A stretch of 64,000 nucleotides of DNA from Deltaproteobacteria bacterium. Its GTDB lineage: Bacteria; Myxococcota_A; UBA9160; SZUA-336. The position numbers were made by a program, and so were the translations under genes. Position 1 is the first letter of the stretch. Each line of letters begins with the position of its first letter. Under the pieces are notes generated by a model. It had not been told where the DNA came from. It was given only the letters and a program-made list of their open reading frames with translations, and did not search any database. The stretch is from the NCBI GenBank assembly GCA_029261895.1, contig JAJDAK010000067.1, forward strand, positions 12,541 to 76,540. The letters run 5' to 3'. Of the stretch, positions 20,686-41,949 are shown piece after piece.

Positions 20686-22391
20686 ATCAGCTCTTTCGCA
20701 ACTACCTCAAACAGGCGGGGTGGTTCCGTCCGGCTCGACTCATGCGTCATCATCGTCAACAGCGACAAGGTCATCCGGATTGGACACGGATTCTCGACCG
20801 TGACCGTTCGGAATGGGAGGCCGCCCTGGAGCGGTCACGTAGCGGACCCAAGGTGTTGATCGCGACCAGTTTTGGCGGGCATCTCGCCGTAACACCCGTG
20901 GAGAGTATGCTCGCCGTCGCACTCACATTACGGGGTGCGCGCCCGGAAATCCTACTCTGCGATTCCGCTCTGCCAGCCTGCATGGCATGCGAAGTCAGTT
21001 GGTACCCGAATCAAGAAGCGTTTCTTGAGTTCGGACCCAAACCAGATCTTTGCAAAGAATGTTTCAAGCCTGCACATCACATGTATCAGGGCGCGGGGTT
21101 TCGCGTACACCGCTACAGCGATTGGTTGGCTACAGCCGACCACACGCGTGCCGAGGAAATTCTCGATGAAACGCCCTACGCATCGATTCCCGCTTTGGTG
21201 GTCGATGGAATTGCGGTCGGCGAGCACGCCATGGCGGGCACCTTGCGCTTTTTCGCACGCGGCACGCTCGACGCCGAGCAACACGCCGAAAGTGTTTTAC
21301 GGCGCTATCTGCATGCGGCACTGTTGACAACGTTTTCGACACAGCATCTTTTGGCAGATCACCCATTCGAAACGGCAGTTTTCCATCACGGGATCTACGT
21401 GCCACAGGGATTGATCGGAGAGGTCGCGAGAAAATTCCACACGCGAGTCGTAAACTGGCATCCCGCATACCGCAAGAAGAGTTTCCTCTTCAGTCACGGC
21501 GACACCTACCACCAGACATTGCTGCATGAACCCACCAGTGAGTGGGAAAACATGGAATGGAACGCAGAGCTCGAGTCGGAGACCCTACGGTACCTCGAGA
21601 GCCGCTGGACCGGGCACGAGGACTGGATCTGGTTTCATGAGAACCCAAGCTTTGATCTGGATGAATTGACGCAAGACATTGGCGTAGATTTACAACGCCC
21701 CTGCATCGGCCTGATGACCAACGTGGCTTGGGACGCTCAGCTGCACTACGACGCCAACGCCTTCCCGGATATGTTGAGCTGGTTGTTTGCAACCATCGAA
21801 CATTTCCGCGGTCGACCGGAACTGCAGCTGATCATTCGTGTGCATCCGGCGGAGTTGCGAGGAGCATTACCGTCGCGTCAAAAGGTCGTCGATGAACTCC
21901 GCGGGGCATTCCCGACATTACCATCGAATGTATTCGTCATCGGACCGGAGAGTCGGCTGAGCACCTATGCCGTCATGGCGCGTTGCGACTCGATCCTCAT
22001 CTACGGCACCAAGGCGGGGATCGAACTCACAAGCTTGGGCGTACCCGTGATCACCGCGGGCGAAGCTTTCATTCGTAACAAGGGCATCACGTTGGACGCC
22101 AAGTCGAGCGAGGACTATTTCGAACTGCTGCAGAAGCTACCGCTCGGGGAACGCCTGGTTGACGCCGAGTTGGAACGCGCACGGAAGTACGCGTTTCACT
22201 TTTTCTTCCGGCGCATGATCCCATTGGAGTTCATGGAGCCCACGGGGGCGTATCCGCCATACCGTATCGCCACCGATAGCATCGAGCCATTCTTGCCCGG
22301 ACGCAGTCGCGGCCTCGACATCATCTGCGACGGCATTTTGAAGGGCACGAGCTTCGTCTACCCGGCAGAGGAACTACTCCGCGGCGTTTAA
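20682..22391 (+). CDS. KpsS/KpsC (Capsule_synth)/TagF-like GT-B protein, paralog D (569 aa)
   Basis: The C-terminal half reads LIIRVHPAELRG...STYAVMARCDSILIYGTKAGIELTSLGVPVI. It resembles the KpsS HHP...AVVTINSTAGISAL block and the R.HP...NTSA blocks of paralogs A to C. Confidence 0.55.
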   Translation: MNQLFRNYLKQAGWFRPARLMRHHRQQRQGHPDWTRILDRDRSEWEAALERSRSGPKVLIATSFGGHLAVTPVESMLAVALTLRGARPEILLCDSALPACMACEVSWYPNQEAFLEFGPKPDLCKECFKPAHHMYQGAGFRVHRYSDWLATADHTRAEEILDETPYASIPALVVDGIAVGEHAMAGTLRFFARGTLDAEQHAESVLRRYLHAALLTTFSTQHLLADHPFETAVFHHGIYVPQGLIGEVARKFHTRVVNWHPAYRKKSFLFSHGDTYHQTLLHEPTSEWENMEWNAELESETLRYLESRWTGHEDWIWFHENPSFDLDELTQDIGVDLQRPCIGLMTNVAWDAQLHYDANAFPDMLSWLFATIEHFRGRPELQLIIRVHPAELRGALPSRQKVVDELRGAFPTLPSNVFVIGPESRLSTYAVMARCDSILIYGTKAGIELTSLGVPVITAGEAFIRNKGITLDAKSSEDYFELLQKLPLGERLVDAELERARKYAFHFFFRRMIPLEFMEPTGAYPPYRIATDSIEPFLPGRSRGLDIICDGILKGTSFVYPAEELLRGV

Positions 22392-22775
22392 TCGTGCTTC
22401 CGCGCGGTCGAGTTCGTCGCGCGCGATTTGCACCTCTTCGGGCGGCGATTGCACACCGATCCGCTCGAGTTCGTTCCGTGCACGATCCACCGCTTGCTCC
22501 GCACGTGCACGATCGATCTGATTCGAGACCTCCGCAGTCCGAGCCAAGATCGTTGCGCGTTCTTGAGTCACTTCCGCGAACCCGCCCGAAACTGCAACGC
22601 GATGCGTTTCACCAGCCACCCGATATTCGACAACGCCGGCGCGCAACGGAGCAAGGAACGCTTCGTGTTCTGCGAGCACACCAAATTGACCCTCGGTTCC
22701 GGGGATCACCACGGAATCGACGTCGAGCTCCACAATCGGGCTCTCGGGCGTAACGATGCTGAGATGGGTCGCCAT
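22374..22775 (-). CDS. atpC: F1 ATP synthase epsilon subunit
   Basis: IVTPESPIVELDVDSVVIPGTEGQFGVL is a typical epsilon N-terminus. It lies downstream of atpD. Confidence 0.85.
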   Translation of the reverse strand: MATHLSIVTPESPIVELDVDSVVIPGTEGQFGVLAEHEAFLAPLRAGVVEYRVAGETHRVAVSGGFAEVTQERATILARTAEVSNQIDRARAEQAVDRARNELERIGVQSPPEEVQIARDELDRAEARLNAAE

Positions 22776-22780
22776 GTGAC

Positions 22781-25079
<2,299 letters not shown>

Positions 25080-25105
25080 GTTTCAATCTCTCCAGCGAGT
25101 TGGTG

Positions 25106-26644
25106 TTAGTTCAACTGTTTCGATGGCTGAAAGTTTTCTGCAAACGAATCCAACGCTGCATCCAACTTGGTCTTCACTTCATCCGTCAGCTTTCCGCTCG
25201 AGCGGATTTCGTCAAGAATTTGAGAATGTTTGCTTTCGATCAACTCGACTAGCTCTTCGCCAAAGCGCGTCACGTCTTCGACCGGTATGCCGAGAACCCA
25301 TGAAGGTCGATCGTCGGTCGCGGTCGCCGCATAAATCTGCACCACTTGGTGTTCAACGGGCAATGGCTTGTACTGCGGCTGACGCAACATCACGGTGAGG
25401 CGCTGACCGTTCGCAAGCTGATCTTGAGTGGTCTTATCGAGATCACTGCCAAACTGCGCAAAAGCTTCAACCTCTCGGTACTGTGCGAGCGACACGCGCA
25501 ATCCGCCCGCAACGCCCTTCATCGCTTTCACCTGCGCGGCACCGCCGACGCGGGAAACCGAAACACCGGCGTTCATGGCTGGGCGCTGGCCTGAGTTAAA
25601 GAGGTCTGTCTCAAGAAAGATCTGACCATCGGTAATTGAAATCACGTTGGTCGGAATATAGTCCGACACGTCGCCGGCTTGCGTTTCAATAATCGGCAAT
25701 GCGGTTAAGCTGCCACCACCCTCGGCGTCACTCATCTTCGCGGCACGCTCAAGCAAGCGTGAATGCAGATAGAAAACATCGCCGGGATAGGCTTGGCGTC
25801 CCGGTGGGCGCCGAAGCAACAATGCCATCTGACGGTAGGCGGTGGCTTGCTTGGAAAGATCGTCGTAGATGATCAGCGCGTGCTGGCCGCTATCGCGAAA
25901 CCATTCGCCCATGGTGCAACCCGTGTAAGGCGCCATGAACTGCAGCGGTGCCGGATCGGATGCACAAGCCGCAACCACGATGGTGTAATCCATCGCGCCG
26001 TGCTCACTGAGCTTCTCGACCACTTGGGCAACCGTCGACTGCTTCTGTCCGATCGCGACGTAAATGCAAAACACACCCGTTTCGCGTTGATTGATGATGG
26101 TATCGATGGCGATCGCGGTCTTGCCCGTTTGGCGGTCGCCGATGATGAGCTCGCGCTGACCGCGACCGATCGGTGTCATCGCATCGATGCACTTAAGACC
26201 CGTCTGCAACGGTTCCTCTACCGGCTGACGACTGACGATGCCCGGTGCTTTGACTTCAACACGACGAGATTCGCTGGATTCGATCGGACCTTTTCCGTCG
26301 ATCGCTTTCCCCAGGCCGTCGACGACTCGGCCGAGCAAACCTTTACCGACGGGAACCTGCAAGATTTCTCCGGTGCGGCGCACGATATCGCCTTCACGAA
26401 TCTTGCTATCGCCGCCCATGATGGCAATGCCGACGTTGTCCTCTTCCAGGTTCAACACCAAGCCTTGGACCCCGGCAGAAAACTCGACAAGTTCACCCAT
26501 GGCCGCATTCTCAAGACCATAAACACGCGCAACACCGTCACCCACCGAAAGCACGGTTCCAGTTTCCGCTACATCGATCTCTCGTTCGTAGTCACGAATC
26601 TGGCGTCGAATAATGTCGCTGATTTCGGCCGCTTTGATCTTCAT
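25106..26644 (-). CDS. atpA: F1 ATP synthase alpha subunit
   Basis: [18 protein letters not shown] is the Walker A motif. Full-length alpha subunit. Confidence 0.95.
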
Positions 26645-27180
26645 CGCGATCCCTTCTCCAAGCTCCCGGCCAGGGAACCCAACTGTGTTTTCACACTACC
26701 GTCGAGCAGCAGATCACCCACACGGGCGACAACACCGCCGATTAAGCTTTCATCAACCTTCACCTTGAGATTCACCTGCGCGTTGACGCGCTGTGAAAGA
26801 GCGGCACGAATCGATTCCACTTCACTCTCGTCGAGCGCGCGGGCAGAAACAAGCTCCGCATCCACCTGGCCCGCGGCAGCTTGCACCTGCTTTCGCAGTT
26901 CGTCGCGAATCGCAGGTAGCAACGCGACGCGATTCTCATCGACAAGAATCATCGCAAACGTACGCATCTCTGGCGCGATCTCTAGCTTCTCCGCCAACTC
27001 CGCGATCAAGCCACGGCGTTCCGCCCGCGGATGAATCGGCGTAAAGAGTGCCCGCTCCAACTCGGGACTTCCGGTCACGGTTCCCGTTAGCAGATCAATC
27101 TGACTGAGCAGATCTGCCGCGTCGCCAAGACCGAATACCGCACGCGCGTAACGCCGTGCAATCGCACCACCCTTGATCAC
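26641..27180 (-). CDS. atpH: F1 ATP synthase delta (OSCP) subunit
   Basis: Its position is between atpF and atpA. The YARAVF N-terminus is typical. Confidence 0.8.
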
Positions 27181-27737
27181 GCGCGTTCCTCCACTTTCTG
27201 GATGTATTCCCCGACCAGGCGACGATCGATGTCCAGAGTCATTTTCTCGCGCAGAATCTCACCCGCCATAGAGATGGCGAGATTTGAAGCTTCGCGCTGC
27301 AGTTCACCGCGAGCGCGCGAGACCTCTTGCGTGGCCACGATACTTGCTTCATTCCGAATTCGCGTCGCTTGTTCCTCCGCACGTTCCATGATTCGCGCAG
27401 CGCTCGCGCGCGCTTGTTCTTCGGCATCCCCCACCATGCGGTTGGCTTCGGCTTCAAAACCATCGAGGCGTTCACGGATTTCTTTGAGATCTGCTTCCGC
27501 GCGGCGCAGACGATCCTGCGAATCTTCAAGGCGATCGCGGATGGCTGCCGCACGATTTTTCAGAAACTCCTGCAATGGCTGACGTGCAAAACGAAACAGC
27601 ACGAACGCCAACACGAACACGTTGATGATCTGCAGGATGAGCAGACGCCAGTTTGGCTCGGCATGGGCTTCACTCGCGGCAGCTGCGTCCCCCGCGATAC
27701 CGAAGATCAGCAGAACGAGTGCTGTAGCTCGGATCAT
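27177..27737 (-). CDS. atpF: F0 ATP synthase subunit b
   Basis: One N-terminal transmembrane segment is followed by a long charged coiled coil. Position within the operon supports the call. Confidence 0.75.
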   Translation of the reverse strand: MIRATALVLLIFGIAGDAAAASEAHAEPNWRLLILQIINVFVLAFVLFRFARQPLQEFLKNRAAAIRDRLEDSQDRLRRAEADLKEIRERLDGFEAEANRMVGDAEEQARASAARIMERAEEQATRIRNEASIVATQEVSRARGELQREASNLAISMAGEILREKMTLDIDRRLVGEYIQKVEERA

Positions 27738-28399
27738 GAGTCACTCCGCAATAACTTGTCTGCGATATCGCGCGCAATCACGCGCGCATCGTTGTGTAGC
27801 ACCGCGCGCGACGCAACGAGCTCTTCGCCTACAGCGTTACGTACCTTATCGACTTCGGTCGTTGCCGCATCACGCGCAGATGCAATCAATTCCCGTTCCC
27901 TCTGCTCGGCCTCACTGAGAATACGGCGACGTGCATCGGTGACTCGATCCCCAACCTGCTCGAGACGCGTGCCAAGCTCACGCTCCGCGCGTGCCGCTTC
28001 GGCCGCCACCGCTTCCGCCTGATCGGATGCCCCCGCGGTTTGTTCGTCCCGCAGGGCCAAAGTGCGAACCAGCGGATCGATCAAGAACTTTTTGGTGGGA
28101 ATCATCAGTAGCAGGAACAGAACGATGTTCATTCCAACACGCGTAGGATTGATGTCGAAAAGGCCTCCGCCCCCCGCCGCCCAAACCGGGCCCGCTAGGC
28201 TGACGCCCAAGACAATCCATGCAATCTGATTCTTTACGCTCCGCAAGCTGCCCTGTCCCGTGCTGCCCGTCGATAATCCGGATAGAAATGGGAGGAAGAA
28301 ATAGGCCTGACCGAGATTCCCCGCGGCAGACCAGATCAAATCCGTAGCACCGAATGCCGCCGACGTGGTCGGCCCTCTGCGCGGCCCGGAGTATCGCAA
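27734..28399 (-). CDS. F0 ATP synthase subunit b'. The true start is probably internal, near 28230.
   Basis: LFDINPTRVGMNIVLFLLLMIPTKKFL is a b-subunit N-terminus followed by a coiled coil. It forms a tandem pair with atpF. Confidence 0.65.
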   Translation of the reverse strand: MRYSGPRRGPTTSAAFGATDLIWSAAGNLGQAYFFLPFLSGLSTGSTGQGSLRSVKNQIAWIVLGVSLAGPVWAAGGGGLFDINPTRVGMNIVLFLLLMIPTKKFLIDPLVRTLALRDEQTAGASDQAEAVAAEAARAERELGTRLEQVGDRVTDARRRILSEAEQRERELIASARDAATTEVDKVRNAVGEELVASRAVLHNDARVIARDIADKLLRSDS

Positions 28400-28430: not shown

Positions 28431-28796
28431 TTATTCCGCCTTTGCTTGGGGGTTTGGGATAGCCATCGGAGTACCCGTCATTTGAATCTTGGCGTTTAGC
28501 CGCGAACCCTCGTCCATCTGTAGCCTCGGTGCCATCACCGTACCCTCCACAACACCCGTCGCACCGACTTCGACGCGCTCCCGCGCAGCGATATCGCCGA
28601 TCACAGTGCCATAGACCACCAAGCTGCCGACATCGAGCCGGGCTTCGACACGACCCGTCTCGCCGACCACCAAGGTACCGTCGGCACTGACCTCGCCCGA
28701 GAAATGGCCGTCGATCCGGACCAACCCTTGAAACGAGACTTTCCCCTGAAACGAAGTCCCGCTGTCTAAAAACGCTTTCAATGACGGATCACTCAT
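28431..28796 (-). CDS. Bactofilin (DUF583) cytoskeletal protein
   Basis: A repetitive beta-helical pattern of G.V.G.V / G...G.V..DG repeats. It overlaps the parB stop by 4 nt. Confidence 0.7.
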   Translation of the reverse strand: MSDPSLKAFLDSGTSFQGKVSFQGLVRIDGHFSGEVSADGTLVVGETGRVEARLDVGSLVVYGTVIGDIAARERVEVGATGVVEGTVMAPRLQMDEGSRLNAKIQMTGTPMAIPNPQAKAE

Positions 28797-29704
28797 GACT
28801 CACCTCCAAACAATCGTTCGGTCAATCGTTCCAACTCGGCCTCGCCGAAATAATGCAGTTCAACACGGCCTCGGTTCCGTTTTCCGACGATCCGAACCCG
28901 AGTCTGCAGTTCGCGACGCATGCGTTCTTCTAGGTCAACGATGTGAACGTCACGCGATGGCCCCGGTCGAGCTGTTTTTGACGCACTACTTGGTGCGTCA
29001 TCTGACGCGACGCGTCTAGACAGTTCTTCGGCGGCACGCACCGACAGGCCTTGCCGTTTGATCTGATCACGTACTAAAACTCGTGATTCTTCGGGCGCTT
29101 GCAAGATCGCCTTGGCGTGGCCCATGGTGAGATGCTGATCGATCAGCTCCTGCTGAATTGACGCATGGAGTTCTAAAAGCCGTAAATGGTTTGCGACCGT
29201 CGAGCGATCCAGACCAACGCGTCGACCCACTTCTTCCTGCGTCATGCCCTCACTGTCGATCAAAACCGCAAAGGCGTTGGCGAGTTCGACCGGGTTCAAA
29301 TCAGCACGCTGCACGTTTTCCACCAACGCCATTTCAACCACGATTCGATCGGTCGCATCGGTAATGACAACGGGAACGGTGTCGAGTCCGGCCATTTGCG
29401 ATGCGCGCCAACGTCGCTCGCCGATGATGAGTTCATAGCCATCACCGCGGCGCCGAACAACCAAGGGCTGCAGGATGCCCTGCTCGCGAATCGATGCCGA
29501 GAGCGATGATAACTCCTGGTCACGAAAGGATTTTCTTGGTTGATTGGGGTTAGGTGCAACCTTCGAAATTGGGACAAAAAGTGGCCCAGCATCCGCGCTT
29601 TGGTCCGACCTTTCGCTCGAAAGCGGCGCAGCTGCCGCCTTGCTCGACGGTGTCGGTGGGATCAGCGCTGATAGCCCGCGCCCCAGGGCTTTACGTGCTG
29701 CCAT
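28793..29704 (-). CDS. parB: Chromosome partitioning protein ParB
   Basis: LQPLVVRRRGDGYELIIGERRWRAS is the ParB box. An HTH region is present. Confidence 0.9.
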   Translation of the reverse strand: MAARKALGRGLSALIPPTPSSKAAAAPLSSERSDQSADAGPLFVPISKVAPNPNQPRKSFRDQELSSLSASIREQGILQPLVVRRRGDGYELIIGERRWRASQMAGLDTVPVVITDATDRIVVEMALVENVQRADLNPVELANAFAVLIDSEGMTQEEVGRRVGLDRSTVANHLRLLELHASIQQELIDQHLTMGHAKAILQAPEESRVLVRDQIKRQGLSVRAAEELSRRVASDDAPSSASKTARPGPSRDVHIVDLEERMRRELQTRVRIVGKRNRGRVELHYFGEAELERLTERLFGGES

Positions 29705-30468
29705 TTTGGATCCTTTCTAATAGCTCCTCCGCAAGTTGGAGATAACTAATGGCTCCTTTGGAGTTGATGTCATAAAGCAGCGCGGGCTTGCCATGGCTCG
29801 GTGCCTCGGAAAGTCGGACGTTGCGAGGAATCACGGTTTTGAAAACCAAGTCCCCGAAATGCTCCCGCGCTTCAAGCACAACCTGGGTTGAGAGGTTATT
29901 GCGCTGATCTCGCATCGTGAGTAGCAGGCCTTCGACCCGTAAATCTGGGTTGAGCGTGCCTTTGACCAGCTCGATGGTCTGCATCAGCCCAGCCAAACCC
30001 TCGAGCGCGAGATACTCACATTGCAGCGGCACCAGGACGGTATCTGCCGCAACCAACGCATTGAGCGTCAGCAGACCCAGCGACGGCGGGGTATCGATCA
30101 GGATGATTTCGTAGTCATCCCAGACCCCGGCAATCTGCTTTCGTAGTCGATATTCGCGCTCCGTCGCGGTCGCGAGCTCGATCTCCGCACCCACAAGATC
30201 CGAGGTTGTGGGGACCAGATGTAAAAATCGCAGCGGGGTTTCGAGGATCAACTCGGAAAACTTGGCGATTCCGACGAGCCCGTCGTATGAGCCCTGCTTC
30301 ACGTCAGCGGGCAGGTATCCGAGGCTGGAGGTCGCATTTGCCTGTGGATCGAAGTCGATCAGCAGCGTGCGGCGTTCCGCGGCGGCCAAAGACGCAGCGA
30401 GATTAACAGCGGTGGTCGTCTTGCCGACTCCGCCTTTTTGATTCGCCACTGCAATGACTCGTGCCATT
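29691..30468 (-). CDS. parA: Chromosome partitioning ATPase ParA/Soj. The start is trimmed to MARVIAV.
   Basis: VIAVANQKGGVGKTTTAVNLAASLA is the deviant Walker A motif. The ORF-track N-terminal extension is implausible. A G-rich ribosome-binding site precedes the chosen ATG. Confidence 0.85.
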
Positions 30469-30507
30469 CCACCCCCCGATGGCTCCAATGTCGGGAGTTT
30501 ACATGAA

Positions 30508-30523
30508 TGTTCCACGTGAAAGG
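30508..30523. promoter_or_regulatory. parS-like site 1 upstream of parA
   Basis: TGTTCCACGTGAAAGG compared with the consensus TGTTTCACGTGAAACA, 3 mismatches. Confidence 0.4.
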
Positions 30524-30547
30524 AGCAGAACCTTTCGTCATTTGATG

Positions 30548-30563
30548 TGTTCCACGCGAAACT
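30548..30563. promoter_or_regulatory. parS-like site 2 upstream of parA
   Basis: TGTTCCACGCGAAACT compared with the parS consensus, 3 mismatches. It lies 40 bp from site 1. Confidence 0.35.
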
Positions 30564-30901
30564 ACCGCCCCATGAGCACGTAACAGAGCAGCAAGGTCTT
30601 TTAAACGATGGGAAAAAGGCGCGGGGCATACCACTCCGCTCAACTGGGGCCCCCGAGCTGCCCAAGCTCGCTTCGCGGCACGCCCCGCGCCTTTTTCCCA
30701 GTAAATCGCGTCGCTCGGTAATAGAGAACATGTGCCCAAGTAAGCGGAACACATCAAATGCCTCAACGGTGAAGGGGTTTGAGATGCCCTGCGGTGCGAA
30801 GCACCGCTTTTCCCTCGCAGCCACGCAACGCCCGCCCCCGCAACGCTGTGCAAACGAAAACACGCGGCTAAACGAAACAGGATTCCGTCGCGAGTGGTCG
30901 T

Positions 30902-30979
30902 GAGGTTACGTCATGGGGTTGGAGCGAACTTGGGCTGCTCTGGGGTCCCAGTTGAGCGAAAACCCCATGACGTAACCTC
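30902..30979. repeat. Perfect 19-bp inverted repeat with a ~40-nt loop (GAGGTTACGTCATGGGGTT ... AACCCCATGACGTAACCTC), immediately downstream of the rsmG stop
   Basis: Exact reverse-complement arms at 30902-30920 and 30961-30979. Confidence 0.7.
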
Positions 30980-30993
30980 AAACCCCAACAGCC

Positions 30994-31521
30994 TCAGGAT
31001 GGAATCCGGATCACATGTCCACGTGGAAGAGGAATTGTGGTCGCGCCGGCCGGGGCGGGCTTCGTGGTCCAAATCCAAAGCTCCCCGTCGCTGCATAACC
31101 AGGGCACGCCCAGTTTTTGACTCGCGTCAGGCGACGCAACGGCACGCATGGTCGCGATGTCAAAACGCTCCGGCGGTGGATCTTCAAGGCGCCGACGTTC
31201 CACACGGATGTCGAGGCCAAGGGTGCGTACGATATGACGCAGGAAATGGACCCGCTTCTCACGAATCTCGACGAGGGTTAGATCGAGATCGGGCCGTGCG
31301 ATCGCGATCGGAATACCCGGTAGTCCCGCACCCGAGCCAAGGTCAGCCAAGCGGATACCTTTGGGGATCTGATCCACCACAGCGAGCGAGTCTTCAAAAT
31401 GAACCTCGATGTCGACTCGCTCGAGTGAACCGACGAGATTCATCCGCTCGCCCCAGGATTGGAGCTCGGTCAGATACTGTTCGAGCTGGTCTTTGACGCG
31501 CTGCTCGAGCGCGTGGCTCAT
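30994..31521 (-). CDS. rsmG: 16S rRNA (guanine527-N7)-methyltransferase RsmG/GidB
   Basis: IADLGSGAGLPGIPIAIARPDLDLTLVEIREKRVHFL is a typical GidB motif. Confidence 0.85.
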   Translation of the reverse strand: MSHALEQRVKDQLEQYLTELQSWGERMNLVGSLERVDIEVHFEDSLAVVDQIPKGIRLADLGSGAGLPGIPIAIARPDLDLTLVEIREKRVHFLRHIVRTLGLDIRVERRRLEDPPPERFDIATMRAVASPDASQKLGVPWLCSDGELWIWTTKPAPAGATTIPLPRGHVIRIPS

Positions 31522-32348
31522 TCCGGTTCGACTTTGACGCGCTTCGTGCGGCCCTCTCCGTCGCTGCGAGACGTCACACCCGCGATCTCCCGGATGACGT
31601 TATGGATCACCCAGCGCTCTTTCGAATTCATCGGTCGCATCGTTAGCGCCTCGCCCGATTCCTGCACGTCCGCCGCGGCGGCGCGCGCTTCTTTCTCGAG
31701 TTCCTCTGAGCCCTCAGGCATGGCTTCCTGGCCTCTGTCATCCGACACACCGGAGTGCGCCACCGAGACACGTACTCGAACTTCTTCCTCTTCGAGCTTC
31801 TGCCCCGCACGGTGAGCCAGATGCGAGAGTGCAAGCAGGGTACGTTGGTCGTTCTTCACCATTTGTGCGATCGAGGCACCACGGATCAGGATCTTAATTT
31901 CCTCGCCGTCGCGCGTTTCCTCGACACGACTCTGCGGTCCAAGCGACATCTTCTCCAATATGCCCCGTACAAAGTCTCCAACGGCGCCGACCTCTTGCTG
32001 TGGTCCGAGATCCTCTTCGGGTTCGGGTTCCGGCACCGGTGCCTTGGCGGCTACCGGACGCTCTTCACGCGGTTTGCGGTCAGAACGGGATCGATCACGA
32101 CGCTCGCCGCGGTCTCGATCACGTCCACGATCTCGACCCTCTCTACCGCCATGATCTTCGTCGCGACTTTGTCTCGGCTGCTGATTCGCCAAACCGGCAA
32201 GGACTAAAACGCGCCCCCCCAGCCCCGAGATATCGAGATCCTCAGGAACCTGGCTAACGCGTAGCTCGCCTTCGGAAACACCGTAATGTTGAATAGCCTG
32301 CGCGACCGCGCTTTCGCGCGAGTCCGCCGCGAATTCCTTCCACTCCAT
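31518..32348 (-). CDS. Jag/KhpB-like RNA-binding protein with KH and R3H domains
   Basis: The C-terminal R3H-like region reads RWVIHNVIREIAGVTSRSDGEGRTKRVKV. It sits between yidC and rsmG. There is a central R/D/E-rich low-complexity linker. Confidence 0.7.
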   Translation of the reverse strand: MEWKEFAADSRESAVAQAIQHYGVSEGELRVSQVPEDLDISGLGGRVLVLAGLANQQPRQSRDEDHGGREGRDRGRDRDRGERRDRSRSDRKPREERPVAAKAPVPEPEPEEDLGPQQEVGAVGDFVRGILEKMSLGPQSRVEETRDGEEIKILIRGASIAQMVKNDQRTLLALSHLAHRAGQKLEEEEVRVRVSVAHSGVSDDRGQEAMPEGSEELEKEARAAAADVQESGEALTMRPMNSKERWVIHNVIREIAGVTSRSDGEGRTKRVKVEPE

Positions 32349-32380: not shown

Positions 32381-34039
32381 TCACGCCTTCGCTGGCGTCG
32401 TGCCACTTCGATTTACCCAGGTCTGCTGCAAGATGCCGAGCACGTTGCTTACGAACCAGTAAAGCACAAGCCCCGACGGGAATTGATAGAAAAGAAAAAT
32501 GAACACGACGCTCATCCACATCATCATTTGTTTCTGTTGCGGATCCGCGGACGGATTCGGCGTCATTTTTTGCTGAAGCACCATTGACGCACCCATCAGA
32601 AGTGGGAGCACGCGGATCGGTAGGCCCGCAACCGAAAACAAAGTTTCCGGTGTAGACAGATCGTTGATCCAGAACATGAACGGCGCATGACGCAATTCGA
32701 TCGTGCCTTGAAGCGCAAAGAACAGCGAGACCAGAAACGGCATCTGAATGATCATCGGCAGGCAACCCCCGCCCATTGCGGAGAGTGGGTTCATACCTTT
32801 GCGCTTATACAACGCCATCATTTCTTCCTGAAGCTTGCCCTTGTCGTCCTTGTACTTCTCCTGCAGCGTCTTCATTTCAGGTGCAATCACTTGCAGACGC
32901 TTCATCGACTTCATCGAACGCTGTGTCAAAGGGAACGTAATCAGTCTCAGCAAGATCGTCAGCAGAATGATGGCAACGCCGTAGTTGGAAACGACGTTCG
33001 TATACGTCCACTTGAGCAGGGCGGAGAAAAGCGCCACCAAACCACGAATCCAAGACCACCCGGTATCCACCGCGGGCAAGAGCGGCGCATCTACTTCGGC
33101 GCTATAGGCCGTTACAACGTCACGTTGCTTCGGTCCGATGTAGAGGTCGTAGAAACGCTCGACGTAACTCCCCGCGGGTACTTCGAATGCGGGATAACTC
33201 AGCAGCGCAACGCCGGTATCGACGCCAGCGGCCTGCACACTCGCGGAAGCTTCCTCACGATTCTTCGGAATCACGACGATCATGAAGTACTGACTCTCCA
33301 CACTCACCCAATCAACGGGCGGAAAGAGCGGGTCAACACCGCCAAACGCAAAGAAACCTGGATCGTGGGCGCCCTTGATCGCCTGCCGCTCTATGCCGTC
33401 CACACCGAGTGCGGCCACGCTGTAGTTTCCAAAGCCAGTGCGACCGTTGTCTGTTCCGTACAGCGCGACTTGGAATTGCGGTCTCAAGACATCGTCGGTG
33501 CGGTTCTCGAGTCGGACACGGAGCTGCGCCCCGTAGCCGGTCTCGTCAAGACTCAGCTCGCGCACGATCCGCATGCCACTCACCGTTTGCGTCAGCTCAA
33601 CCCGACGCGTTTCCCGCGCAGTGATTTCGCTCCGCTGGCCTGCGAGTTGTTCAAAAACACCGCGGCCAAACAAAATTTCCATGACGCCGAGCTGTTGCTG
33701 GGTGACGAGCTCAAGTGGACTGTCGTCGTCGAGACTCTGATGAAAATCGAACAGTTTCACACTGGTCAGTTTGGGGCCCTCGTTGGTCATCGCGAGTTCT
33801 AGCTGGTCGTTTCGCAAGACCACGGTCTCGGCATTGATCTTCGATGCCGTACCCTGAACGGGCGCTGGATCTACTGACGCAGCTTCAGGTGTCTTTGACG
33901 CGGTCGGAAGTCCACTCTCTCCCAGCGTCGAGTCTGCGGTCTGCGGTGATGCAGGAGGTGGCGCTGCTGGTGCGGTCCAGAGCCAGCCGATCAGCATGGC
34001 GACACCTGCAGCAATGACGATGATTTGTATGCGATCCAA
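32381..34039 (-). CDS. yidC: Membrane protein insertase YidC
   Basis: YGVAIILLTILLRLITFPLTQRSMKSMKRLQVIAPEMKTLQEKYKDDKGKLQEEMMALYKRKGMNP is the conserved YidC core. Confidence 0.9.
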   Translation of the reverse strand: MDRIQIIVIAAGVAMLIGWLWTAPAAPPPASPQTADSTLGESGLPTASKTPEAASVDPAPVQGTASKINAETVVLRNDQLELAMTNEGPKLTSVKLFDFHQSLDDDSPLELVTQQQLGVMEILFGRGVFEQLAGQRSEITARETRRVELTQTVSGMRIVRELSLDETGYGAQLRVRLENRTDDVLRPQFQVALYGTDNGRTGFGNYSVAALGVDGIERQAIKGAHDPGFFAFGGVDPLFPPVDWVSVESQYFMIVVIPKNREEASASVQAAGVDTGVALLSYPAFEVPAGSYVERFYDLYIGPKQRDVVTAYSAEVDAPLLPAVDTGWSWIRGLVALFSALLKWTYTNVVSNYGVAIILLTILLRLITFPLTQRSMKSMKRLQVIAPEMKTLQEKYKDDKGKLQEEMMALYKRKGMNPLSAMGGGCLPMIIQMPFLVSLFFALQGTIELRHAPFMFWINDLSTPETLFSVAGLPIRVLPLLMGASMVLQQKMTPNPSADPQQKQMMMWMSVVFIFLFYQFPSGLVLYWFVSNVLGILQQTWVNRSGTTPAKA

Positions 34040-34051
34040 GTTCAGGGCTCC

Positions 34052-34263
34052 CTACGGTAGATCGATGCCGCCCGCCCGAAAAGGCGTGCAGCGGAGCAGG
34101 CGCGTAAACGTACGCCAACCCCCGCGCCAAAAACCGTCCATTTCAATCACTTGGACTGCATACTCAGAACAGCTCGGATAAAAACGACAGGTCGGACCCA
34201 TCATCGGGGATAGTGTCCGCTGATACAGCCGAATTAATCGAACCGCTCCGTTCAAGACAACAC
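34052..34263 (-). CDS. yidD: Membrane protein insertion efficiency factor YidD. The start is trimmed to GTG just after the rnpA stop.
   Basis: The CRFYPSCSEYA motif is present. The longer ORF-track version would overlap rnpA. Confidence 0.7.
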
Positions 34264-34602
34264 CCCGATTTCTCGAAGTTTCTTGTTGAGGTCCGCATTG
34301 ATTTGATCCTGATGCAGCTTCTGGGGCATATCCCGTTTGGCGACCAGGACTAGATCGCATGATCCAAAGTCGAGTTCGCGTTTGCGAAACCATTCGCGAA
34401 CCAAGCGTTTAATGCGATTTCGACGGACTGCATGGCCCACCTTGCGCGTGACGGTGATTCCAAGACGTGTTTCGCCTGCGTCCTTGCGTTCGAGCTGAAA
34501 AACCAAGAAATAGCGCGTGACGATGCGCCGACCCCGACGTGTCGCCAAGAGAAAATCCGGTCGCCGGAGCCGAGCTCGCAGCTGCCGCTCCGTGCCCACC
34601 AT
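34252..34602 (-). CDS. rnpA: RNase P protein component
   Basis: ITVTRKVGHAVRRNRIKRLVREWFR is the RnpA motif. It lies downstream of rpmH. Confidence 0.85.
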   Translation of the reverse strand: MVGTERQLRARLRRPDFLLATRRGRRIVTRYFLVFQLERKDAGETRLGITVTRKVGHAVRRNRIKRLVREWFRKRELDFGSCDLVLVAKRDMPQKLHQDQINADLNKKLREIGVLS

Positions 34603-34978: not shown

Positions 34979-36292
34979 ATGTTGAAAACCCGTCGCGGCG
35001 TTTTACCTTCGCATGCGGACCACCCATTGTGGCTTTCGATACTCGAAAAGCTTGATGGTAAACTTGCGGGCACGCAGGTCGATGAAATCATCGACGCTTC
35101 GCGTGTGCTTCAAGTTTCATCCGCGGATCTTCGTTTAGGTGTACGTCAAGCGCAGTTGTTGCGCTGGGTGCACGATGGTAGGCTTGCGTTACTTGCTTCA
35201 GTAATCAGCAATGTTACCGACGGTGGGACTGAGCTTTCTGTTGTTCCGCTCGATGTTGATCTTCCACTTCATCTAGATCCGAGTCTCACACTTGAGAGTT
35301 TCATCGGAAGTCCTTCGAACTTCGATGTAATTCAACAAGCACGTGGAAAGCTTGACCGTTTCAACCAAGTTTCGCGCCCGGTGTTCGTTTTCGGCCCATC
35401 GGGTTCAGGCAAAACTCATTTGCTCTGCGCAATGGCACAATCTACTGCAGAAAAAGTTTGTGACGGAGAGATCATCTGCCTCAGCGCACAAGACTTTTCT
35501 ATGCAGATCGTTAACGCAATCCGCGGCGCAGAGCTGGAACTCCTACGTCAGCGCTTACGGAACGCGTCAGCCGTCATTTTGGACGATATCCAGGACCTCG
35601 TTGGGCGGGAGGCTTCACAGGAGGAACTCGTTCGAATCCTCGAGGAAATCCGCGAATCCCGACTCGTCACGCTCAGCGCGGATCGACCCGCAGAGACCTT
35701 AACCGGGCTGATGGATCCGCTGCGAAAGCGCCTGATTGAAGCCGTCGGTTTGCGCCTAACGCCTCCTGAGTGGGAGACCCGAGTCGCCATTGTTCTGGAG
35801 CGCGCGACACGCTGGGGCATCCCGATGTACCCCGAGGTCGCATCCTTTTTAGTGGGCGAGCTCGGTCACGACCTCAGCCGACTCGATGCGATCCTGACCC
35901 GGCTGATGATCCATCCCACCAGTGAGAGCGGTTTGATGGATGTGAATTTGGTACGACGAGCATTGACGCAGGACCATCGTTCCACGCGCCCCATCTCTCC
36001 TGATGCGGTCATCGAACTTGTCGCGCGTCATTTCAATCTCAAGCAATCCGATCTGCGCACTGCGAGTCGAAGTCCGCGCGTCACGACACCGCGTCAAATC
36101 GCCATGTACCTCGTGCGCCGCCATTGCAGCCTGTCATTTCCCGAGATCGCCAGGCGCTTTCGACGCCATCACACCACCGCACTCCATGCCTGCCGTCAGA
36201 TCGACACAAAGCGAGATCAGCAGGGCAGCCTCCGTGCCGCGCTGGTGTTGTTGGAAAAAGAGCTGCTTCTCCTTGGGGAAGAGTGTGGATAA
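34979..36292 (+). CDS. dnaA: Chromosomal replication initiator DnaA
   Basis: VFVFGPSGSGKTHLL is the AAA+ Walker A motif. The C-terminal DnaA-box binding HTH reads PRQIAMYLVRRHCSLSFPEIARRF. Confidence 0.9.
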   Translation: MLKTRRGVLPSHADHPLWLSILEKLDGKLAGTQVDEIIDASRVLQVSSADLRLGVRQAQLLRWVHDGRLALLASVISNVTDGGTELSVVPLDVDLPLHLDPSLTLESFIGSPSNFDVIQQARGKLDRFNQVSRPVFVFGPSGSGKTHLLCAMAQSTAEKVCDGEIICLSAQDFSMQIVNAIRGAELELLRQRLRNASAVILDDIQDLVGREASQEELVRILEEIRESRLVTLSADRPAETLTGLMDPLRKRLIEAVGLRLTPPEWETRVAIVLERATRWGIPMYPEVASFLVGELGHDLSRLDAILTRLMIHPTSESGLMDVNLVRRALTQDHRSTRPISPDAVIELVARHFNLKQSDLRTASRSPRVTTPRQIAMYLVRRHCSLSFPEIARRFRRHHTTALHACRQIDTKRDQQGSLRAALVLLEKELLLLGEECG

Positions 36293-36479: not shown

Positions 36480-37586
36480 ATGAAATTTCAAATTGATCGC
36501 GATGAACTCTTACGAGGGCTTGGACGTATCCAAGGAATTGTGGAGCGTCGCGGTACGCTCCCGATTCTTTCAAATGCACTTTTTCAAGTACGAGAGGACG
36601 GCATCACACTCGCTGCAACTGACCTCGAGGTAGGCGTGACGGCAACCTTGGCGGCAAAGGTGACAAAAACCGGTGCGGTAACGCTCGTTGCGAAAAAGCT
36701 CTACGAGATCGTTCGTGAGTTGGAAGAAACCGAGCTTACATTCAGCCTTGAAGAAGGCTCACGTGTTCGTATCGATTCTGGAAAAGCGCGCTTCAGTCTG
36801 CTCTCCATCTCCCCGGAGGAGTATCCAAGCATTCCGAGCGGGGATGGTGTGAACTTCGTCGAGATGGAGGCGTCGTTACTTGCAGAGATGGTCGATCGAA
36901 CGATGTATGCCACTTCCACCGACGAAGCCCGTTACAACTTGAACGGTGTTTTCATGGAATTAACCGAGGACAAGCGCCTTCGCTGTGTGGCTACCGATGG
37001 TCATCGGTTGGCAAAAATCGATAAGACACCACAGAAACCGCTCGAGTTTCTTAGCAAGGGAATCATTGTTCCGCGCAAAGGCGTCGGCGAAATCCGCAAG
37101 CTATGTGACGAGACCGATGCGACGGTCGAACTCGGTCTTCGCGATGGTTTTCTGATTGTGCGACGCACGGGATTAACACTTTCGTGTCGGCTGATCGAGG
37201 GAGAGTTTCCGAACTATCGTCAGGTTCTTCCGGATGATCCCAAGGTTCGGCTGCTGGTCGATCGTGAACGCCTGCTTCATGCGGTGAGACGAATATCCCT
37301 GCTCGCACATGAACGCTCGAGAGGATTCCGGCTCGCGATCGAGGATGGAGTTTTGGAGCTATCTGCGAATAACCCCGATTTAGGCGAAGCCGTTGAACAG
37401 CTCGAGATTGATTACAGCGGCAAACGCGTGGAGACGGGTTTCAACGCGCGTTACATGCTCGACGTCTTGGGTTCAATGATTTCCAAAGAAGTGAGTCTGG
37501 AGCTTACCGACGAACTGGCACCGGCAAGGATCTGTCCCGCGGATGATCCGGACCTACTCGCAGTCATCATGCCGATGCGGCTTTAA
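36480..37586 (+). CDS. dnaN: DNA polymerase III beta sliding clamp
   Basis: MKFQIDRDELLRGLGRIQGIVERRGTLPILSNALF is a typical DnaN N-terminus. The length of 368 aa fits. Confidence 0.9.
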   Translation: MKFQIDRDELLRGLGRIQGIVERRGTLPILSNALFQVREDGITLAATDLEVGVTATLAAKVTKTGAVTLVAKKLYEIVRELEETELTFSLEEGSRVRIDSGKARFSLLSISPEEYPSIPSGDGVNFVEMEASLLAEMVDRTMYATSTDEARYNLNGVFMELTEDKRLRCVATDGHRLAKIDKTPQKPLEFLSKGIIVPRKGVGEIRKLCDETDATVELGLRDGFLIVRRTGLTLSCRLIEGEFPNYRQVLPDDPKVRLLVDRERLLHAVRRISLLAHERSRGFRLAIEDGVLELSANNPDLGEAVEQLEIDYSGKRVETGFNARYMLDVLGSMISKEVSLELTDELAPARICPADDPDLLAVIMPMRL

Positions 37587-37587
37587 G

Positions 37588-37920
37588 TTACACAGCCGTA
37601 GAATTCGGTTCATCTTCAAGATTGGGCAGGCCAATCGCGTCAATAAGCACATCGCTGACCCCCGGCCATCGAATCTTGCGTCCTTGGTTCCTTGCGGTGC
37701 GCGCGAACGTATAAAGGAGTTGAACCGTGGCTATATCGAAGCGTTTCAGTGCAGACGTAACGATCACAATGGGATGTTCTGTGAGAAGGGCTTCCTCTAG
37801 GTGGCCACGCAGCTTCTGAACGCGATCGATTGTCATATCACCGTCGACTAGGATGGTTGTGGATGTTGGTGGACTCGACGTACACGCATCTTTCCTCACG
37901 AGTTTTTTTATTTTGGCCAT
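37588..37920 (-). CDS. STAS-domain protein (anti-sigma-factor-antagonist-like)
   Basis: A 110-aa protein with IVIVTSALKRFDIATVQLL...IDAIG STAS-like features. It is convergent with dnaN. Confidence 0.45.
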   Translation of the reverse strand: MAKIKKLVRKDACTSSPPTSTTILVDGDMTIDRVQKLRGHLEEALLTEHPIVIVTSALKRFDIATVQLLYTFARTARNQGRKIRWPGVSDVLIDAIGLPNLEDEPNSTAV

Positions 37921-38098
37921 AGTGTAACAGCACCAGTTAGCGGTACTTCCTCTGGCCTACTGCTCGGCGGTATGCGAAAAAACCTTTACAGTAGAAGTGT
38001 CGTTTCCGACACAGAAAAGTGCATGTATATCTACACAAAAATATGTCTATAGCTCGGGATAGCCGTCGCCGATCTAACAGCCCGAGATATACACCAAC

Positions 38099-39265
38099 AT
38101 GCGTATAAATATGACCATCAAAGTGGCACTCGTGACAACACTGGCATGTGTTGTCGAGTCAATCTTAGATTCGGCCAGGTTGCCGCCCTGGTCTCTTGTT
38201 TTACTGAGCTCGGCGGTATGGGTCTTTTGCGTCTATAAAGCGGAGCGATCGGGTCTGTATCTGGCTAAAACAGGGAATAAAGCGGTTGTTAATGACATTG
38301 CGATCGGCATGAAGGAAGTTATTGATCGCGAGTGTGAAGAGATGACGCAATCTGTTGAACAAGTTCTCAGTATGGTCTCGGATGCCTCGACCAAGGTCAA
38401 AGAGAGCTTTATTGGGATGAACACTGAAACCCGAGGCCATGCGCAAGTGACGGAATCGTTGATTTCGCGAATGAATGCGAACTCGGAAGGAGAAGAGGCT
38501 GGAAAGCATGTCACGTTCCGACAGTTCGCAGAGGAGATCGATGAGGTCCTGCAAGGATTTGTGAGCTCGATTGTCACGGTGAGTCATGAGTCGATGGTGA
38601 TCGTGGCGAATATCGAGGATGTAGCCATTGAGATGAACGAGATCGTAGGTTTGGTCCGTGCGATTCAGTCGGTGGGTCATGAAACACATATGCTTTCGCT
38701 GAACGCCACGATCGAGGCTGCCCGCGCGGGTAAGGCGGGTGCGGGTTTCGCTGTTGTGGCGGAGGAAGTCCGCAACCTATCCTTGAATACGCGCGGGGCG
38801 AGTGAAAAAATCACCGCGGCGGTCAGCAAGACCCGGGCGAATATTGAAAGCATGCGGAGTGCTAGCGAAGAAATGGCTTCGAAGGATATGAACGTTGCCC
38901 TCGAAGCGAAGATCCGAGTTGACGAGATGATTCAGGATGTTGAGCAGTTGAACAGTCTGATCGAGAGTAGCGTGGAGGATGTTTCTGGAATCGCGCAGCG
39001 GATCGGGAAGCACGTCAATCACGCCGTCACCGCCATGCAGTTTGAGGATATCTCTGGGCAGTTACTCGAATACATGACGCGTCGGGCGTCCGCTCTGCGA
39101 GATTTTGCCACCCATATCTGCCTGGTGGCCAGTGCTGAGGGTCCAGAGTCAGCCGCGAAAGCCATCGAGGAAAAGAGGCGAGAGATCATGGATCTCGGGG
39201 ATTTCGCTCCGGATAAACCCGTCCACCAAGAGTCCCTTGACACAGGTAGCACTGAGCTTTTCTAG
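38099..39265 (+). CDS. Methyl-accepting chemotaxis protein signalling-domain protein with two N-terminal transmembrane segments and no obvious periplasmic sensor
   Basis: LSLNATIEAARAGKAGAGFAVVAEEVRNLS is the MCP highly conserved domain. Confidence 0.8.
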   Translation: MRINMTIKVALVTTLACVVESILDSARLPPWSLVLLSSAVWVFCVYKAERSGLYLAKTGNKAVVNDIAIGMKEVIDRECEEMTQSVEQVLSMVSDASTKVKESFIGMNTETRGHAQVTESLISRMNANSEGEEAGKHVTFRQFAEEIDEVLQGFVSSIVTVSHESMVIVANIEDVAIEMNEIVGLVRAIQSVGHETHMLSLNATIEAARAGKAGAGFAVVAEEVRNLSLNTRGASEKITAAVSKTRANIESMRSASEEMASKDMNVALEAKIRVDEMIQDVEQLNSLIESSVEDVSGIAQRIGKHVNHAVTAMQFEDISGQLLEYMTRRASALRDFATHICLVASAEGPESAAKAIEEKRREIMDLGDFAPDKPVHQESLDTGSTELF

Positions 39266-39501
39266 CGTTGCTCTCAGCCTCGGGTAGAGATTCATGTCAT
39301 GGGTTGCTGGGCGCGAAAAAAGCGTGTCCCTTCACCTAGACCCTAGTCGCTGGTTAAGTTAGATTAGACAGCGATTTCAAGGCCTTGCGGGGCGATGCGA
39401 AGCAGGACGCCGGAGCGGAATCCCCCATAGGTAGGTCTCCCCCGATAGCTCAGTCTCAGTGCACCTGGTGCAGCCAGAATTATGCCCGATTGAGCGGATA
39501 G

Positions 39502-41946
<2,445 letters not shown>

Positions 41947-41949
41947 GAT

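Follow-up and report, generated by a model that had tools for sequence, protein, structure and literature searches.

An origin-proximal parA-parB-bactofilin operon, probably of the bacM type, in a Myxococcota-like bacterium

Introduction

Why should a single bactofilin gene stand directly behind the partition genes parA and parB and in front of the genes of ATP synthase? The question is raised by a stretch of 64,000 nucleotides (nt) from a Deltaproteobacteria bacterium (GenBank assembly GCA_029261895.1, contig JAJDAK010000067.1), here called the window. All gene coordinates refer to this window, and its 64 kb are the part of the genome searched for this organism. An earlier note on this DNA had described a parA-parB-bactofilin operon running straight into the atp genes. 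It had read the locus against the bactofilins BacNOP of Myxococcus, whose genes it placed next to parAB, and had treated the missing gene for the adaptor PadC as a puzzle.

In Myxococcus xanthus, ParA is recruited to BacNOP through the adaptor PadC, and BacP, the core protein of the scaffold, carries an extended C-terminal region. The gene directly 3' of parAB in that species, however, is bacM and not bacNOP, while bacNOP and padC form a separate putative operon (Lin et al.; PMC5703909, PMC3899335); parA, parB, bacM and MXAN_7474 are co-transcribed (Iniesta 2014; PMC5703909, PMC3899335). BacM acts in cell-shape maintenance and is needed for rod shape, and its deletion leaves ParA-mCherry patches and ParB-YFP positioning unaffected (Lin et al.). 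The premise of the earlier note therefore survives in one half, that bactofilins organise ParABS in M. xanthus, and falls in the other, since it is bacM that adjoins parAB. Because bacM, and not bacNOP-padC, follows parAB there, the absence of padC beside parAB is to be expected at a bacM-type locus. The absence itself was correctly noticed: profile hidden Markov model scans of all open reading frames (ORFs) in the 64-kb window returned one bactofilin, one ParB-like ORF and no PadC-like gene.

We consider it rather probable that the locus is an origin-proximal parA-parB-bactofilin operon of an uncultured Myxococcota-like bacterium, of the bacM type, whose bactofilin may serve as a shape scaffold. 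The evidence for this reading, and that which speaks against it, is set out below.

Results

The parB-bactofilin pair is fixed in its clade

The three genes of the operon are:

29691-30467, minus strand: parA, 258 aa, Walker-type partition ATPase (Pfam AAA_31, E=3e-59; CbiA, 2e-28)
28793-29704, minus strand: parB, 303 aa (Pfam ParB_N, 1e-32; HTH_ParB, 1e-28; ParB_C, 2e-5)
28431-28796, minus strand: bactofilin, 121 aa (PF04519, E=4.9e-27)

Pfam matches for all three bear out the gene calls of the earlier note, although the region it gave ends at 30600, 133 nt beyond the start of parA. This gene begins at ATG 30467, in agreement with the gene call on an identical public contig; a 390-aa parA ORF reaching 30863 is a mechanical upstream extension and was rejected as gene model. 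The proteins are those of a ParABS system, with a Walker ATPase as ParA and a ParB carrying N-terminal, helix-turn-helix and dimerisation domains. Among PDB sequences, the window ParB matches Spo0J (1VZ0, 1e-55) and the M. xanthus-type ParB (7BNK, 7e-51). The ParB-like domain of PadC has a solved structure, and PadC is not among the PDB sequence matches to the window ParB at E<=1e-3.

The genes are tightly packed. parA and parB overlap by 14 nt, and the 4-nt overlap reported for parB and the bactofilin gene is indeed present: the stop codon of parB shares an ATGA (28793-28796) with the start codon of the bactofilin gene, and a GGAGG stands 6 nt ahead of that start. This overlap, together with the lack of any terminator or promoter call between parAB and the bactofilin gene, is consistent with co-transcription. 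The bactofilin would be transcribed together with parAB, and translational coupling to parB would keep its synthesis in step with that of ParB.

Synteny in relatives, which the earlier note had proposed as a check, was followed along two independent routes. For the bactofilin-first route, one genome per GTDB species was scanned, yielding 80 loci whose neighbours were labelled by tblastn with the window proteins. The 12 closest genomes comprise the 11 closest species, with bactofilins 53-62% identical to that of the window, and one NCBI metagenome-assembled genome (MAG) found by exact look-up; the ParA of the closest relatives is 71-75% identical. The order yidC-jag-rsmG-parA-parB-bactofilin occurs in all 12, with atpF'FHA next wherever the contig reaches, and the parB/bactofilin overlap is an RTGA in 11 of them and 1 nt long in the twelfth. 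The MAGs with the closest homologs were labelled Myxococcota or Deltaproteobacteria by their submitters, which agrees with the lineage that had been guessed from the arrangement.

The ParB-first route was blind to the bactofilin. Metagenomes were scanned with the window ParB, giving 80 loci, some of which may share species with the genomes of the other route. Wherever the ParB was at least 65% identical and downstream DNA was available, the bactofilin was present (10/10 loci), with the RTGA overlap in nine cases and a 2-nt gap in one. Where ParB was 36-50% identical, the bactofilin was present at only 1 of 54 loci. In this clade the pairing of parB with the bactofilin gene is fixed and not a chance adjacency.

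The genome scan relied on two peptide patterns, VRIDGHF[SRQ]G and a TLVVGE type, taken from an alignment of 22 closer sequences, by which Myxococcaceae BacM (VRIDGKF) is not retrievable. With these two patterns, none of the genomes in the parAB-linked clade had more than one match.

The third gene encodes a bactofilin with, like mature BacM, almost no N-terminal tail

The earlier note had staked the bactofilin call on a match to DUF583. The match to this family (PF04519) scores 94.5 bits, well over the curated cutoff of 27.9, and spans profile positions 2-97 of 98. In PDB sequences, the protein matches BacA (2N3D, 4e-9) and the Thermus bactofilin TtBac (6RIA, 7e-9). An AlphaFold2 model gives an all-beta helix with a mean confidence (pLDDT) of 86, whose best PDB neighbours by Foldseek are 6RIA, 6RIB and 2N3D; with 6RIA the root-mean-square deviation is 1.8 A and the template-modelling (TM) score 0.88, normalised to the target. 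The model thus has the right-handed beta-helix of solved bactofilins, and on this basis the third gene is predicted to encode a canonical bactofilin beta-helix. The hydrophobic L100 aligns with BacA F130 and BacM F125, and the exchange F130R in BacA blocks polymerisation. Like other bactofilins, the protein would polymerise without nucleotide into filaments.

Both ends of the protein are short. Its N-terminus, MSDPSLKA, places 8 residues before the core, the Pfam domain starting at residue 9, and the C-terminal tail is about 15 aa long. The membrane-targeting consensus of bactofilins, MFSKKKK, is common and not universal (PMC12448750), and no MFSK-type sequence is found in the N-terminus of the window protein. 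Filaments of such a tail-less bactofilin would probably be cytoplasmic, or would need a partner to reach the membrane.

In gene position the window bactofilin corresponds to BacM, lying directly 3' of parAB on the same strand. A cleavable N-terminal extension of the BacM type is absent (8 residues before the core vs ~30 in BacM-type proteins), and mature BacM keeps 5 N-terminal residues outside its core; the window protein would therefore resemble a BacM that has already been processed. Neither bactofilin paralogs clustered with padC in the window nor a long BacP-like C-terminal region on the window bactofilin was found.

Loci of the BacM type also turned up among the homologs. A Corallococcus protein that NCBI names "bactofilin BacM" (P0205) is encoded in the order parA-parB-bacM followed by a 180-aa ORF, and a Myxococcaceae-like one (P0085) in the order parA-parB-bac followed by a 94-aa ORF. 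A third protein (P0093, 38% identity) has L35, I124, F125 and M131, exactly the residues that can be read from mutagenesis primers published for M. xanthus bacM. Over the core, the window bactofilin is 36-40% identical to BacM-type proteins, the Corallococcus BacM standing at 36%. NCBIfam holds no bactofilin subfamily models and so gave no call between BacM and BacNOP, and a second homolog search listed BacM-type proteins alone. Assignment to BacM rests on gene position and moderate sequence similarity.

The atp genes have their own predicted promoter

The second part of the question concerns the junction with the ATP synthase genes, where two features are relevant:

27734-28246, minus strand: atpF' (b' subunit), probable start TTG 28246, 170 aa
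28390-28417, minus strand: predicted promoter of the sigma-70 extended -10 type, TTGACT-16 nt-(TGc)GATACT, 14 nt after the bactofilin stop, from a consensus scan

The earlier note had the bactofilin gene end 31 nt before atpF'. To obtain this gap one must take the longest mechanical ORF (221 aa), whose start at TTG 28399 probably over-extends the gene. Pfam ATP-synt_B matches this ORF only from residue 91, and AtpF' of relatives is 172-175 aa long, with a signal-like N-terminus whose alignment to the window ORF begins near residue 52. Moreover, the promoter overlies TTG 28399, which makes it unlikely as a start because it would lie upstream of the expected transcription start. The 221-aa ORF was rejected as gene model, and atpF' probably starts at TTG 28246, leaving a spacer of 184 nt after the bactofilin gene. 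The corresponding gap in relatives is ~150-300 nt.

The promoter itself is near-invariant in 15 related loci. In a spacer alignment of ten species whose proteins are only ~55-60% identical, the TTGA.TT and TTGC.ATA.T columns are invariant and the surrounding DNA is not. A regular-expression scan of all 1.34 Mb of DNA retrieved for the analysis gave 17 matches to the motif, each just 3' of the bactofilin gene of this clade. The atp genes thus have their own conserved predicted sigma-70 promoter, and they and parAB-bactofilin are not simply fused units; "running straight into the atp genes" was an overstatement. On the coding strand, no intrinsic-terminator-like site was found between the bactofilin gene and atpF', so read-through from parAB into atp is possible.

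Further details of the spacer were recorded. The promoter takes the form TTGACTTG, 12-13 nt, TTTGCcATAyT in the window and in L004, L009-L017, L090, L094, L096 and L097 (L numbers denote homologous loci, P numbers homologous proteins). Between the promoter and atpF' lies a leader of ~140 nt; an Rfam search over the window returned nothing, and the 184-nt atp leader fits no known RNA family. In most relatives (spacers of L004 and L010-L016, alignment columns 66-84) a second motif, CAGCGAAATGTGGCA, stands ~25 nt upstream of the -35 box. It is missing in the window, where the -35 box begins 14 nt after the bactofilin stop. The motif might act as an UP-like element or be the site of a regulator.

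The remaining genes of the atp cluster follow on the same strand:

27177-27737, minus strand: atpF (Pfam)
26641-27180, minus strand: atpH (Pfam)
25106-26644, minus strand: atpA (ORF translation matched to same-order genes of relatives with Pfam hits)
24228-25079, minus strand: atpG (matched in the same way)
22781-24211, minus strand: atpD (matched in the same way)
22374-22775, minus strand: atpC (Pfam)

The cluster (22374-28246, atpF' to atpC) has no adjacent atpI, atpB or atpE, a split shared by relatives, and with no atpB or atpE adjacent the genes for the a and c subunits must be elsewhere. Converging on atpC, a 569-aa ORF on the plus strand (20682-22391) has no Pfam match at E<=1e-5.

The operon adjoins the replication origin

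parA, parB, the bactofilin gene and the atp cluster share the minus strand and lie beside the replication origin. Leading away from the origin, the order on that strand is rnpA, yidD, yidC, jag/R3H, rsmG, parA, parB, bactofilin and atpF'FHAGDC, and the cumulative GC-skew minimum is near 35-36 kb. The genes between the operon and dnaA, and the sites upstream of parA, are:

30994-31521, minus strand: rsmG (Pfam GidB; same order in relatives)
31518-32348, minus strand: jag/R3H (Pfam R3H; same order in relatives)
32381-34039, minus strand: yidC (assigned from gene order and Pfam hits of relatives)
34052-34602, minus strand: rnpA and yidD (assigned from gene order and Pfam hits of relatives)
34979-36292, plus strand: dnaA, then dnaN, a gene for a methyl-accepting chemotaxis protein (MCP), gyrB and gyrA
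30548-30563, unstranded: parS-like 16-mer TGTTCCACGCGAAACT, 3 mismatches to TGTTTCACGTGAAACA, upstream of parA
30508-30523, unstranded: parS-like 16-mer TGTTCCACGTGAAAGG, upstream of parA

The two 16-mers, each with 3 mismatches, are the sole parS-like matches in the window. By chance 0.24 would be expected, and 3 of 100 shuffles reach two. In relatives, too, sites that are parS-like or match parS perfectly stand immediately upstream of parA. The rsmG-parA spacer of the window (30468-30993) measures 526 nt vs ~80-140 nt in the closest relatives, and contains both 16-mers as well as the spurious extension of the parA ORF. Downstream of dnaA (region 36480-44433), the MCP gene (38099-39265) lies between dnaN and gyrB; no recF-sized ORF is found between these two genes, the MCP gene holding that position.

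Distant homologs occupy three kinds of context

Taken more widely, the bactofilin-first loci show three different gene contexts for distant homologs. The first is parA-parB-bactofilin with or without atp, with gaps of 2-75 nt, found in other Myxococcota-labelled MAGs, in a Bdellovibrio-labelled locus (L077) and in a Vicinamibacteria-labelled one (L061). The second is mreB-mreC-mreD-pbp2-rodA-bactofilin-atpF'FHAGDC, found in Desulfohalovibrio reitneri and six other Desulfovibrionales/Desulfobacteraceae genomes (L006, L026, L034, L035, L038, L039 and L056); here the bactofilin gene is the last of an elongasome operon, and its product is 42-48% identical to that of the window. We met no description of this elongasome-bactofilin-atp arrangement in the literature searched. 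The third context is an unrelated conserved locus in which metG and a gene like that for DNA polymerase III delta' stand upstream in divergent orientation, while NifU and MoaD/MoaE are encoded downstream (L007, L020-L037 and others, ~45 loci). The bactofilins of these loci form a sister group with an N-terminus of MAFGR type, possibly membrane-targeting. Since no assembly contained both a MAFGR-type bactofilin and a parAB-linked one, the MAFGR-type proteins may represent an ortholog that has moved, not a paralog.

Conversely, parAB and atp can be neighbours without any bactofilin. In L113 and L157 atp follows parAB directly, while in L102, L103, L111, L129, L136 and L167 an mnmA-like gene (by motif) stands between them; ParB identity in these bactofilin-less loci is 38-48%. 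As parAB and atp are adjacent without a bactofilin in distant lineages, their neighbourhood is old and independent of the bactofilin, and it seems older than the bactofilin insertion. We infer that parAB and atpF'..C are old oriC neighbours, and that the bactofilin is an element placed between them in some lineages. The atp adjacency alone is then no sign of shared function, and looks like inherited gene order and not a functional operon fusion. A rearranged version of the locus was seen in the Myxococcales MAG HK-STAS-MYXO-10 (L073), where parB-parA lies on the opposite strand, divergent from the bactofilin gene, with atpA further upstream; the genes are neighbours yet no longer one operon.

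Discussion

We return to the question of what the bactofilin gene does behind parB. By analogy with BacM, there is about an even chance that its product is a scaffold for cell shape or cell-wall growth and not an essential component of ParABS. Such a role is favoured because of the BacM phenotype, and because homologs end the elongasome operon in Desulfovibrionales.

Several points weigh against reading the locus as a bacM-type shape operon. A 4-nt overlap kept across the whole clade is the pattern expected of functionally linked proteins, and the link of parAB with a bactofilin recurs in MAGs labelled Bdellovibrio and Vicinamibacteria. The negative result for BacM was obtained in a single species, and in that species BacNOP and PadC are present as well and might hide an ancestral role in ParABS. 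That the window bactofilin is closer to BacM than to BacNOP is a statement about gene position and not a sequence comparison with BacN, BacO and BacP; in a weakly resolved neighbour-joining tree (121 columns) the window clade falls beside a clade of bactofilins from an unrelated locus and not with the Myxococcaceae BacM group. Finally, the window bactofilin is without the N-terminal extension that is cleaved from BacM, and the window locus is without an MXAN_7474-like gene.

A rival reading, close to the direct coupling that the earlier note had offered as its second option, is that the bactofilin, made together with ParB, itself anchors ParB-parS or ParA without PadC, as an arrangement ancestral to BacNOP and PadC. 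The parB stop/bactofilin start overlap kept in 20 of 22 related loci speaks for it, as do the recurrence of the parAB-bactofilin linkage in distant lineages and the fact that bactofilins organise ParABS in M. xanthus at all; a window with one bactofilin and no second ParB-like ORF, and clade genomes with no second scan match, fit it too, although the former search covered 64 kb of the genome and the latter scan used two peptide patterns. We nevertheless regard direct coupling as unlikely. ParA and ParB localisation does not depend on BacM, the sole bactofilin of this gene position to have been characterised. Recruitment of ParA in M. xanthus needs PadC, and BacP of that species has a long C-terminal region, whereas the window protein has a tail of ~15 aa. 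Furthermore, the Desulfovibrionales homologs kept the atp neighbour and swapped parAB for an elongasome operon, which argues that the bactofilin is not tied to ParB.

The same swap could be turned around to propose that the bactofilin belongs with atp more than with parAB, for instance by positioning or tethering F1Fo, since its adjacency to atpF' survives the change from parAB to mreBCD-pbp2-rodA upstream. The one hint from outside is in Helicobacter pylori, where the shape protein Csd5 is reported to interact with ATP synthase, MurF and the bactofilin CcmA (as cited in PMC6590870). Yet the conserved promoter separates the bactofilin gene from atpF', which lies ~150-300 nt away in relatives whereas the bactofilin gene overlaps parB, and other lineages have parAB-atp without a bactofilin just as M. 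xanthus-type bacM loci have no atp downstream. The adjacency is explained well enough by shared ancestry of gene order, and a tie to ATP synthase seems to us very improbable. A small bactofilin gene might also have come to lie by chance between two housekeeping operons, given that bactofilin genes are common in many contexts and that 53 of the 84 homolog loci examined have other neighbours, though no evidence specific to this locus points that way. Synteny refutes this: the pair is kept in every one of the 12 and of the 10 loci of the two routes, nearly always with the 4-nt overlap, and M. xanthus has a documented locus of this arrangement whose genes are co-transcribed (Iniesta 2014), so that the chance of a fortuitous adjacency is close to nil.

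Under the bacM-type reading, which we prefer, the apparent puzzle of the missing PadC is removed. The arrangement is much older and wider than Myxococcus, extending to many Myxococcota MAGs and to Bdellovibrio- and Vicinamibacteria-labelled MAGs, and gene contexts suggest that the bactofilin is a variable element in an old origin-proximal gene order, placed after parAB, placed after an elongasome operon, or absent. A parAB-linked BacM-type bactofilin was already known, and the feature is real, conserved and fairly ordinary; current understanding of bactofilins or of ParABS is unchanged by these results. Literature searches for bactofilin-atp or parAB-bactofilin-atp synteny returned nothing specific, nor did we meet a description of the 4-nt overlap kept across the clade, of the protein without its N-terminal tail, of the conserved promoter for atp or of the elongasome-linked arrangement. 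It is improbable, though worth stating, that the tail-less, ParB-coupled bactofilin represents an ancestral adaptor-free anchor of ParB-parS or ParA, with BacNOP-PadC a later development and BacM a remnant shifted to shape; if that were true, the conserved 4-nt overlap would set a fixed ratio of ParB to bactofilin production. In any case, the overlap-locked, tail-less clade offers a clean natural test for a segregation role of parAB-linked bactofilins.

Comparison with known systems

The M. xanthus locus parA-parB-bacM(-MXAN_7474), in which BacM is MXAN_7475, shares with the window a single same-strand bactofilin gene after parB, near oriC, and no padC. Mature BacM has almost no N-terminal tail, as is the case for the window bactofilin, but it gets there by cleavage of an extension of ~27 aa, whereas the window protein is made without one. 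The spacing also differs: at the Corallococcus and Myxococcaceae-like loci 3-75 nt separate parB from the bactofilin gene, vs the 4-nt overlap in the window. Downstream, the M. xanthus locus continues with a gene for an MXAN_7474-type small protein where the window has atpF' with its own predicted promoter, and M. xanthus-type bacM loci have no atp genes there.

The BacNOP-PadC system resembles the window in joining a bactofilin-family protein and ParABS in a Myxococcota-type organism. It differs in its separate operon away from parAB, its three co-assembling paralogs, the long C-terminal region of BacP and the ParB-like adaptor PadC, none of which has a counterpart in the window.

With Caulobacter crescentus BacA and the Thermus thermophilus bactofilin, the window protein shares the PF04519 domain, the right-handed beta-helix (in its predicted model) and a hydrophobic residue at the position of BacA F130; unlike them, it has no MFSK-type sequence and no adjacent gene for a cell-wall enzyme. 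In the Desulfovibrionales elongasome loci, on the other hand, the upstream operon is not parAB, and what is shared is the layout itself: a homologous bactofilin of similar size ends the upstream operon, and atpF'FHAGDC follows.

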